From the sequence record MK524178.1: DNA of 64,000 nucleotides; one strand, given 5' to 3'. This stretch comes from Escherichia phage PHB12. Of the stretch, positions 31,936 through 32,391 are shown in pieces. The notes under the pieces were generated by a model, which searched no databases, was not told the origin of the DNA, and was given only the letters and a program-made list of their open reading frames with translations. Every line of letters starts with the position of its first letter. Positions within the stretch are counted from its first letter, which is position 1. A program made the translations under genes and the position numbers.

Positions 31936-32391
31936 TTATTTTAGATCTTCGGCCCAATCTAGTTTTAAGGGTTCTTTGTATTCACGGTCGAGAATAACCG
32001 GAATAGCTACATCACCACTGAATGATAGTTGGCCAACGTTATATGATAACGTTATATGTGGAGTGTAGTCGTCGAAATCATGAGTAGCACCTAAAGCCCG
32101 TGCATACTGATGACGACATCTAAGATATTCGGAATCAAGAACTAAAACCAGTACAGCGCCGTCATCGGTTTTCCATACCTCAAGGTGTCCTGATTCGGCA
32201 ACAGAATAACTACCACTAGATATAGTATATGGTATGTTTACACGTGAATAACAAATTGTTGAATGAAGCTTTTCGCGTGGTACTGGATTAGGAATTCTTA
32301 ATTTGCGCTGGAGGTCTTCCAGCGCATCAAGTGTTAATTCCGAAAATTTAGCTGCGACGTAGAGGCCTTGTGAAAAGTCCTCAAATTTCAT
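31936..32391 (-). CDS. 57B: gp57B, 2H-phosphoesterase (Acb1 anti-CBASS family)
   Basis: 151 aa; two H-x-T/S motifs (HSTICYS and HITLSY); position next to 57A. Confidence 0.8.

Follow-up and report, generated by a model that had tools for sequence, protein, structure and literature searches.

The founding anti-CBASS nuclease is Acb1 of phage T4, the product of gene 57B (gp57B, NP_049750.1), which was identified via activity-guided fractionation and found in experiments to cut the cyclic nucleotides by which bacterial CBASS immunity signals (Hobbs et al., Nature 2022, PMC9117128). Its active site is a tetrad contributed by two HxT motifs, namely H44, T46, H113 and T115, and the H44A/H113A mutant is catalytically dead. 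Nucleobases stack against Y12, W74, F107 and W147, and the N6 of adenine is contacted by E141. Nine further, diverse homologues all cleaved both 3'3'-cGAMP and cAAA (PMC9117128). T-even phages that encode Acb1 are themselves restricted by Panoptes decoy-guard systems, from which they escape through inactivation of acb1; a nonsense mutation in the gene has been reported for phage Bas43 (PMC13577387).

The surroundings of the T4 gene have also been linked to defence. There acb1 adjoins ipI, an inhibitor of GmrS/GmrD (PMC9117128), and in a 2025 study the T4 proteins Ip1, Ip2 and Ip3 were each found to inhibit a distinct GmrSD-type restriction enzyme, with many more Ip genes present in related phages (PMC12373910).

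The DNA analysed here, hereafter the window, is a stretch of 64,000 nucleotides from Escherichia phage PHB12 (MK524178.1). Judged by nucleotide comparison the window is part of a Mosigvirus (RB69-like) genome, because a 7-kb stretch around acb1 is 94-97% identical to the RB69-like phages Escherichia phage SF, phiE142 and RB69 (96% in the case of RB69, which is classified in the Straboviridae, Tevenvirinae, genus Mosigvirus). The gene at 31936-32391 (minus strand) is, in our assessment with a probability of roughly 95%, the acb1 (gene 57B) orthologue of this RB69-like Mosigvirus, and would thus encode a nuclease acting on CBASS cyclic-nucleotide signals.

Reading frame, family and functional residues

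The sequence-only reading had placed at these coordinates, on an unstated strand, a 151-residue protein carrying the motifs HSTICYS and HITLSY. Exactly one open reading frame has these ends: acb1 (gene 57B), 31936..32391 on the minus strand, which begins with ATG, encodes 151 amino acids and is classed as a 2H-phosphoesterase on the basis of the open reading frame, Pfam PF23474 and PDB entry 7T26. In its translation HSTICYS spans residues 43-49 and HITLSY residues 112-117, the first HxT motif being H43-S44-T45 and the second H112-I113-T114. On the strand opposite 31936..32391 the listing of open reading frames contains only frames of 30-43 amino acids, none with support.

Family membership was assessed at the level of profile and of sequence. 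Comparison of 57B with PF23474 (Anti-CBASS protein Acb1) gave an E-value of 6.7e-59 and 198.2 bits, against a Pfam cut-off of 27 bits, and covered profile positions 1-144 of 144. Among PDB sequences, the best phmmer match was the crystallised Acb1 of Erwinia phage FBB1 (7T26_A; also 7T27), with an E-value of 1.3e-59 over residues 9-148. Chance occurrence of the two H-x-T/S motifs is excluded, because the whole protein matches both the Acb1 profile and a solved Acb1 chain, each at full length with E-values of around 1e-59. The sole other Pfam match, to PF13563 (2_5_RNA_ligase2), was partial and reached 15 bits (E 0.027), which lies under the 27-bit cut-off of that family also. Direct alignment gave protein identities of 99% to RB69 57B, 86% to T4 gp57B (NP_049750) and 64% to FBB1 Acb1. 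No sequence evidence was found against the identity of 57B as Acb1.

Homologues are widespread, with tblastn finding one in 1470 of 50,697 phage records, the carriers being mostly T4-like phages of Escherichia, Klebsiella, Shigella, Acinetobacter, Vibrio and Aeromonas. PF23474 was present in all 86 database relatives of 57B with the exception of one 99-residue partial match (P0083), and the relatives bear the UniRef name 'Anti-CBASS protein Acb1'. One relative that is near-identical to T4 Acb1 (P0002) carries the NCBI title 'hypothetical protein [Enterococcus faecalis]' and comes from a 3-kb contig. This entry most likely stems from an Enterococcus assembly contaminated with T4-like phage DNA, and not from a genuine Enterococcus gene.

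Whether the catalytic histidines line up with the Acb1 active site had been named beforehand as the check on the assignment, and they do: H43/T45 and H112/T114 of 57B align with H44/T46 and H113/T115 of T4 Acb1, as well as with the corresponding FBB1 residues. Beyond the tetrad, Y11, W73, F106, W146 and E140 correspond to Y12, W74, F107, W147 and E141 of the T4 protein, with the same residue at each position, bringing the published functional residues shared by 57B and T4 to 9/9. In an alignment of 35 homologues, extending down to 29% identity, the invariant positions were G9, Y11, H43, T45, S49, H112 and T114, while E140 and W146 were at least 90% conserved.

Pairwise comparison with the characterised proteins can be summarised as follows. 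T4 Acb1 is 86% identical over its full length and has 152 residues rather than 151, the extra one being N-terminal; it agrees with 57B in the tetrad and at every named ligand contact, and the 14% of residues that differ in the pairwise alignment all lie outside the conserved motifs. RB69 57B (NP_861847.1, also from a Mosigvirus) is 99% identical, has a single amino-acid difference (I57T) and is flanked by the same genes. The more divergent FBB1 Acb1 (64% identical) retains the tetrad, the Tyr, the Glu and the lid Trp, and differs from 57B by a one-residue insertion after 57B residue 79, by Phe at the position of W73 (T4 W74) and by Tyr at that of F106 (T4 F107).

Against T4, 57B shows 75% nucleotide identity compared with 86% protein identity, and the Nei-Gojobori method yielded pS 0.69, pN 0.12 and a dN/dS of 0.067, synonymous sites here being near saturation. 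Against RB69 there were three synonymous changes and one non-synonymous change. These values show that purifying selection on the gene is strong. A decayed or inactive acb1 copy was ruled out, the reading frame being intact, the functional residues all kept and dN/dS 0.067. What is established for 57B thus comprises an intact reading frame, membership of the family, retention of the published functional residues, the modelled fold described below, purifying selection and gene order.

The earlier description of T4 57B as the known Acb1, and hence of the PHB12 gene as known biology and not novel, is one with which we agree, given the 86% identity to T4 gp57B (PMC9117128). The locus offers a known family in a known place, 99% identical to an RB69 gene that had already been sequenced, and in this respect nothing new. 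The name RB69 is absent from the main text of PMC9117128, and 'RB69', 'Mosigvirus' and NP_861847 are absent from the supplementary files that were searched.

Predicted fold, mechanism and competing readings

An AlphaFold2 model of 57B, built on the alignment of 35 family members, had a mean pLDDT of 90.2 and a pTM of 0.83, confidence being low only in three residues at either end. Foldseek comparison of this model (TM values normalised to the target) ranked the two FBB1 Acb1 structures first: the apo form, 7t26, gave an E-value of 1.3e-19, a TM of 0.94 and an rmsd of 0.9 Å at 64% identity, and the product complex, 7t27, which contains the product of 3'3'-cGAMP, gave 1.7e-18, 0.92 and 1.8 Å at 62% identity. 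Two more remote enzymes have the 2H fold and two HxT/S motifs in common with 57B. The Acb1-like phosphodiesterase of Burkholderia phage BCSR5 (9q2y/9q2g) matched with E-values of 1.2e-08 to 2.9e-07, TM values of 0.54-0.65 and rmsd values of 4.6-6.4 Å at 18-19% identity, its distance being evident also by sequence (E 6.6e-4). For E. coli LigT (entries with codes beginning 5ld) the corresponding figures were 3.5e-05 and weaker, about 0.5, about 7 Å and 13-17%. As modelled, 57B has a compact 2H phosphoesterase fold like those of the solved Acb1 structures, and the ranking obtained with the model sets Acb1 apart from a generic 2H enzyme or RNA ligase.

Enzymatic activity, substrate range and an in vivo anti-CBASS effect may be attributed to 57B by homology. 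Its substrates would be the adenosine-containing cyclic di- and trinucleotides (3'3'-cGAMP, cUA, cAAA and others) made by the CBASS CD-NTases of the host, which it would hydrolyse during infection. By analogy with the T4 and FBB1 proteins, stacking by Y11, W73, F106 and W146, together with the C-terminal lid, would grip the cyclic nucleotide within a U-shaped pocket, where E140 would read the adenine N6. H43/T45 and H112/T114 are expected to perform acid-base catalysis without a metal, with the adenosine 2'-OH attacking the 3'-5' bond to give a cyclic-phosphate intermediate and then a linear 3'-phosphate product. Removal of the CBASS signal before activation of the effector would prevent abortive infection. 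An intact acb1 accordingly predicts two opposed properties for the phage, namely resistance to those CBASS systems whose signals are cyclic di- or trinucleotides containing adenosine and sensitivity to Panoptes decoy-guard systems (PMC13577387).

The annotation record points in another direction, since GenBank gives the label 'RNA ligase' to the orthologues in T4, in RB69 and in a number of further phages, a label that PHROG 755 also bears. Taken at face value this would make 57B a generic RNA enzyme of the 2H superfamily, a LigT-like 2'-5' RNA ligase or 2',3'-cyclic phosphodiesterase, rather than a cyclic-oligonucleotide nuclease, and the weak match to PF13563 (E 0.027) and the appearance of E. 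coli LigT among the structural matches lean the same way. We find this hardly credible. The 15 bits scored against PF13563 fall short of its 27-bit threshold whereas Acb1 scored 198 bits; LigT superimposed with a TM of about 0.5 and an rmsd of about 7 Å, at 13-17% identity, compared with 0.94 and 0.9 Å for Acb1 7t26; and the T4 protein, 86% identical, cleaves CBASS signals in experiment (PMC9117128). Moreover, the residues specific to the Acb1 substrate (the stacking aromatics, the adenine-reading Glu and the C-terminal lid Trp) are all kept in 57B. The name 'RNA ligase' was transferred by homology before the characterisation of 2022, on the strength of general similarity within the 2H superfamily. 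The LigT-type identity given in GenBank and PHROGs was consequently rejected, its Pfam score being sub-threshold and its structural match poor next to that of Acb1.

A subtler departure would be a member of the Acb1 family that no longer has the substrate range of T4 Acb1, having moved either towards other cyclic nucleotides or towards a narrower set that avoids triggering decoy guards such as Panoptes. Given the 14% divergence from T4 a quantitative shift in substrate preference is conceivable, and the restriction of Acb1-encoding T-even phages by Panoptes exerts selection under which a change of specificity could be favoured (PMC13577387). Nevertheless, the catalytic and ligand-contacting residues are those of T4 in 9/9 cases, with the differences confined to positions outside the conserved motifs, and cleavage of 3'3'-cGAMP and cAAA by all nine diverse homologues argues for a specificity that varies little within the family (PMC9117128); we regard such a shift as very improbable. 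Only a slim chance is allowed to the broader proposal that Mosigvirus Acb1, its active-site residues being the same notwithstanding, is functionally unlike that of T4, with a range of substrates or kinetics adapted to the CBASS/Panoptes repertoire that RB69-like phages encounter, or that it and the swapped ip9-like protein make up a lineage-specific anti-defence cassette acting on new targets. At the sequence level there is no evidence that 57B departs from T4 Acb1. Recognition of acb1 helps in the prediction of host range, and is useful because many GenBank records still read 'RNA ligase' or 'hypothetical protein'; otherwise it matters little beyond correct annotation.

Gene order and possible regulation

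Five other genes accompany 57B, in the order gene 3 - gene 1 - 57A - 57B - two internal head protein genes, all of them on the minus strand. Gene 3 (33415-34005, minus) lies upstream of gene 1 (32626..33360, minus), which encodes a dNMP kinase of 244 amino acids (Pfam PF21448, E 1.4e-97; RB69 and T4 annotation). Next comes gene 57A (32391..32621, minus), encoding the 76-residue tail-fibre assembly chaperone (Pfam PF17594 GP57, E 2.4e-24; RB69 and T4 annotation). The sequence-only reading had put the gene in the 57B position beside 57A, and the adjoining upstream frame is indeed the GP57 family member, preceded by the dNMP kinase frame. The order gene 1 - 57A - 57B - ip is the same in the T4 and RB69 records; in T4, as here, 57B follows 57A directly and precedes internal-protein genes. 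Gene 1 is a syntenic anchor and stands outside the anti-defence function. A Bas35-like Tequatrovirus as the source of the window was ruled out by mismatches with the published Bas35 acb1 PCR primers: one of the pair falls in gene 1, at 32709-32732, with 2 mismatches, and for the other no site was found even when 3 mismatches were allowed.

The TAA stop codon of 57A and the ATG of acb1 share one base (TAATG), the junction reading GAAGAATAATGAAA; the corresponding T4 junction differs in having a 4-nt overlap. Because stop and start overlap, the sequence suggests that 57A and acb1 are co-transcribed and translationally coupled. A match to the T4-type late-promoter consensus, TATAAATA, is found at 32976..32983 on the minus strand, inside gene 1 and about 355 nt upstream of 57A. 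As a match to the consensus only, it may serve 57A-57B as a late promoter. The consensus occurs 15 times in the window compared with 8.3 occurrences expected, a mild enrichment that by itself is weak evidence. Scans for sigma-70 promoters and terminators across 30000-34500 gave counts no higher than in shuffled sequence.

Further along the same strand, beyond the ip genes, lie three small conserved genes (30317-31165, minus), the orthologues of trna.2, trna.3 and trna.4, which match PHROGs 2023, 1411 and 1692. The trna.4-like protein, of 65 residues, looks like a membrane protein by its hydrophobic sequence. On the far side of these genes are tRNA-Arg(UCU) and tRNA-Met(CAU), at 29561-29637 and 29644-29717 (minus), as in RB69; this cluster of two compares with eight tRNAs at the equivalent place in T4.

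Internal head protein genes downstream of acb1

The immediate downstream neighbour differs between phages, being ipI in T4 and here the first of two other internal-protein genes. Directly after acb1, at 31547..31858 (minus), is a gene for an internal head protein of 103 amino acids (PHROG 2667, E 1.8e-38). It begins with MKTYQEFIAE, the capsid-targeting leader of T-even phages that T4 IPI also has, and shares 99% identity with RB69p156, annotated in RB69 as 'internal head protein', but ends five residues sooner. It is a candidate injected anti-restriction protein.

The second gene, at 31222..31497 (minus), encodes an ip9-like internal head protein of 91 amino acids (PHROG 7673, E 5.7e-49) and likewise begins with the T-even capsid-targeting leader found in T4 IPI, in this case MKTFNEFISE. 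By tblastn the protein is 100% identical to one in phage FL18 and about 71% identical to VR7 ip9. It occupies the slot held by the IPI orthologue in RB69 and T4, with a different body, and an IPI orthologue is absent here; in RB69 the IPI-like gene RB69p155 is found two genes downstream of 57B, where PHB12 has the ip9-like gene. Comparison of the RB69 IPI-type gene (positions 2228-2527 of the RB69 locus compared) with 31222-31497 showed that only the upstream codons and the leader, MEPKMKT[FY]xEFIS, are shared. The slot two genes downstream of acb1 looks like a polymorphic ip position, in which the body cassette may have been swapped behind a conserved leader.

These genes lend partial support to the description of the region as anti-defence-rich in the sequence-only reading. 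In favour of that description, two leader-bearing internal head protein genes follow 57B; against it, neither is the orthologue of IPI. Because T4 acb1 adjoins ipI, and T4 Ip proteins inhibit GmrSD enzymes, an anti-defence role for both downstream Ip genes may reasonably be inferred. The polymorphic ip locus beside acb1 is the more interesting place in which to look for uncharacterised anti-restriction factors. The distribution of related sequences suggests, in addition, that the ip9-like functional module may pass from one phage to an unrelated one without being tied to head packaging.

Matches to the 91-residue protein extend to other phages. In Escherichia phage vB_EcoS_UTEC10 (PP291582.1, 44.8 kb), positions 6491-6709 show 57.5% identity to residues 19-91 of the ip9-like protein; this homologue covers the body of the ip9-like protein and lacks the capsid-targeting leader of the T-even phages. 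The 91-residue protein is also matched by two records with an organism name starting 'Kagunavirus'.
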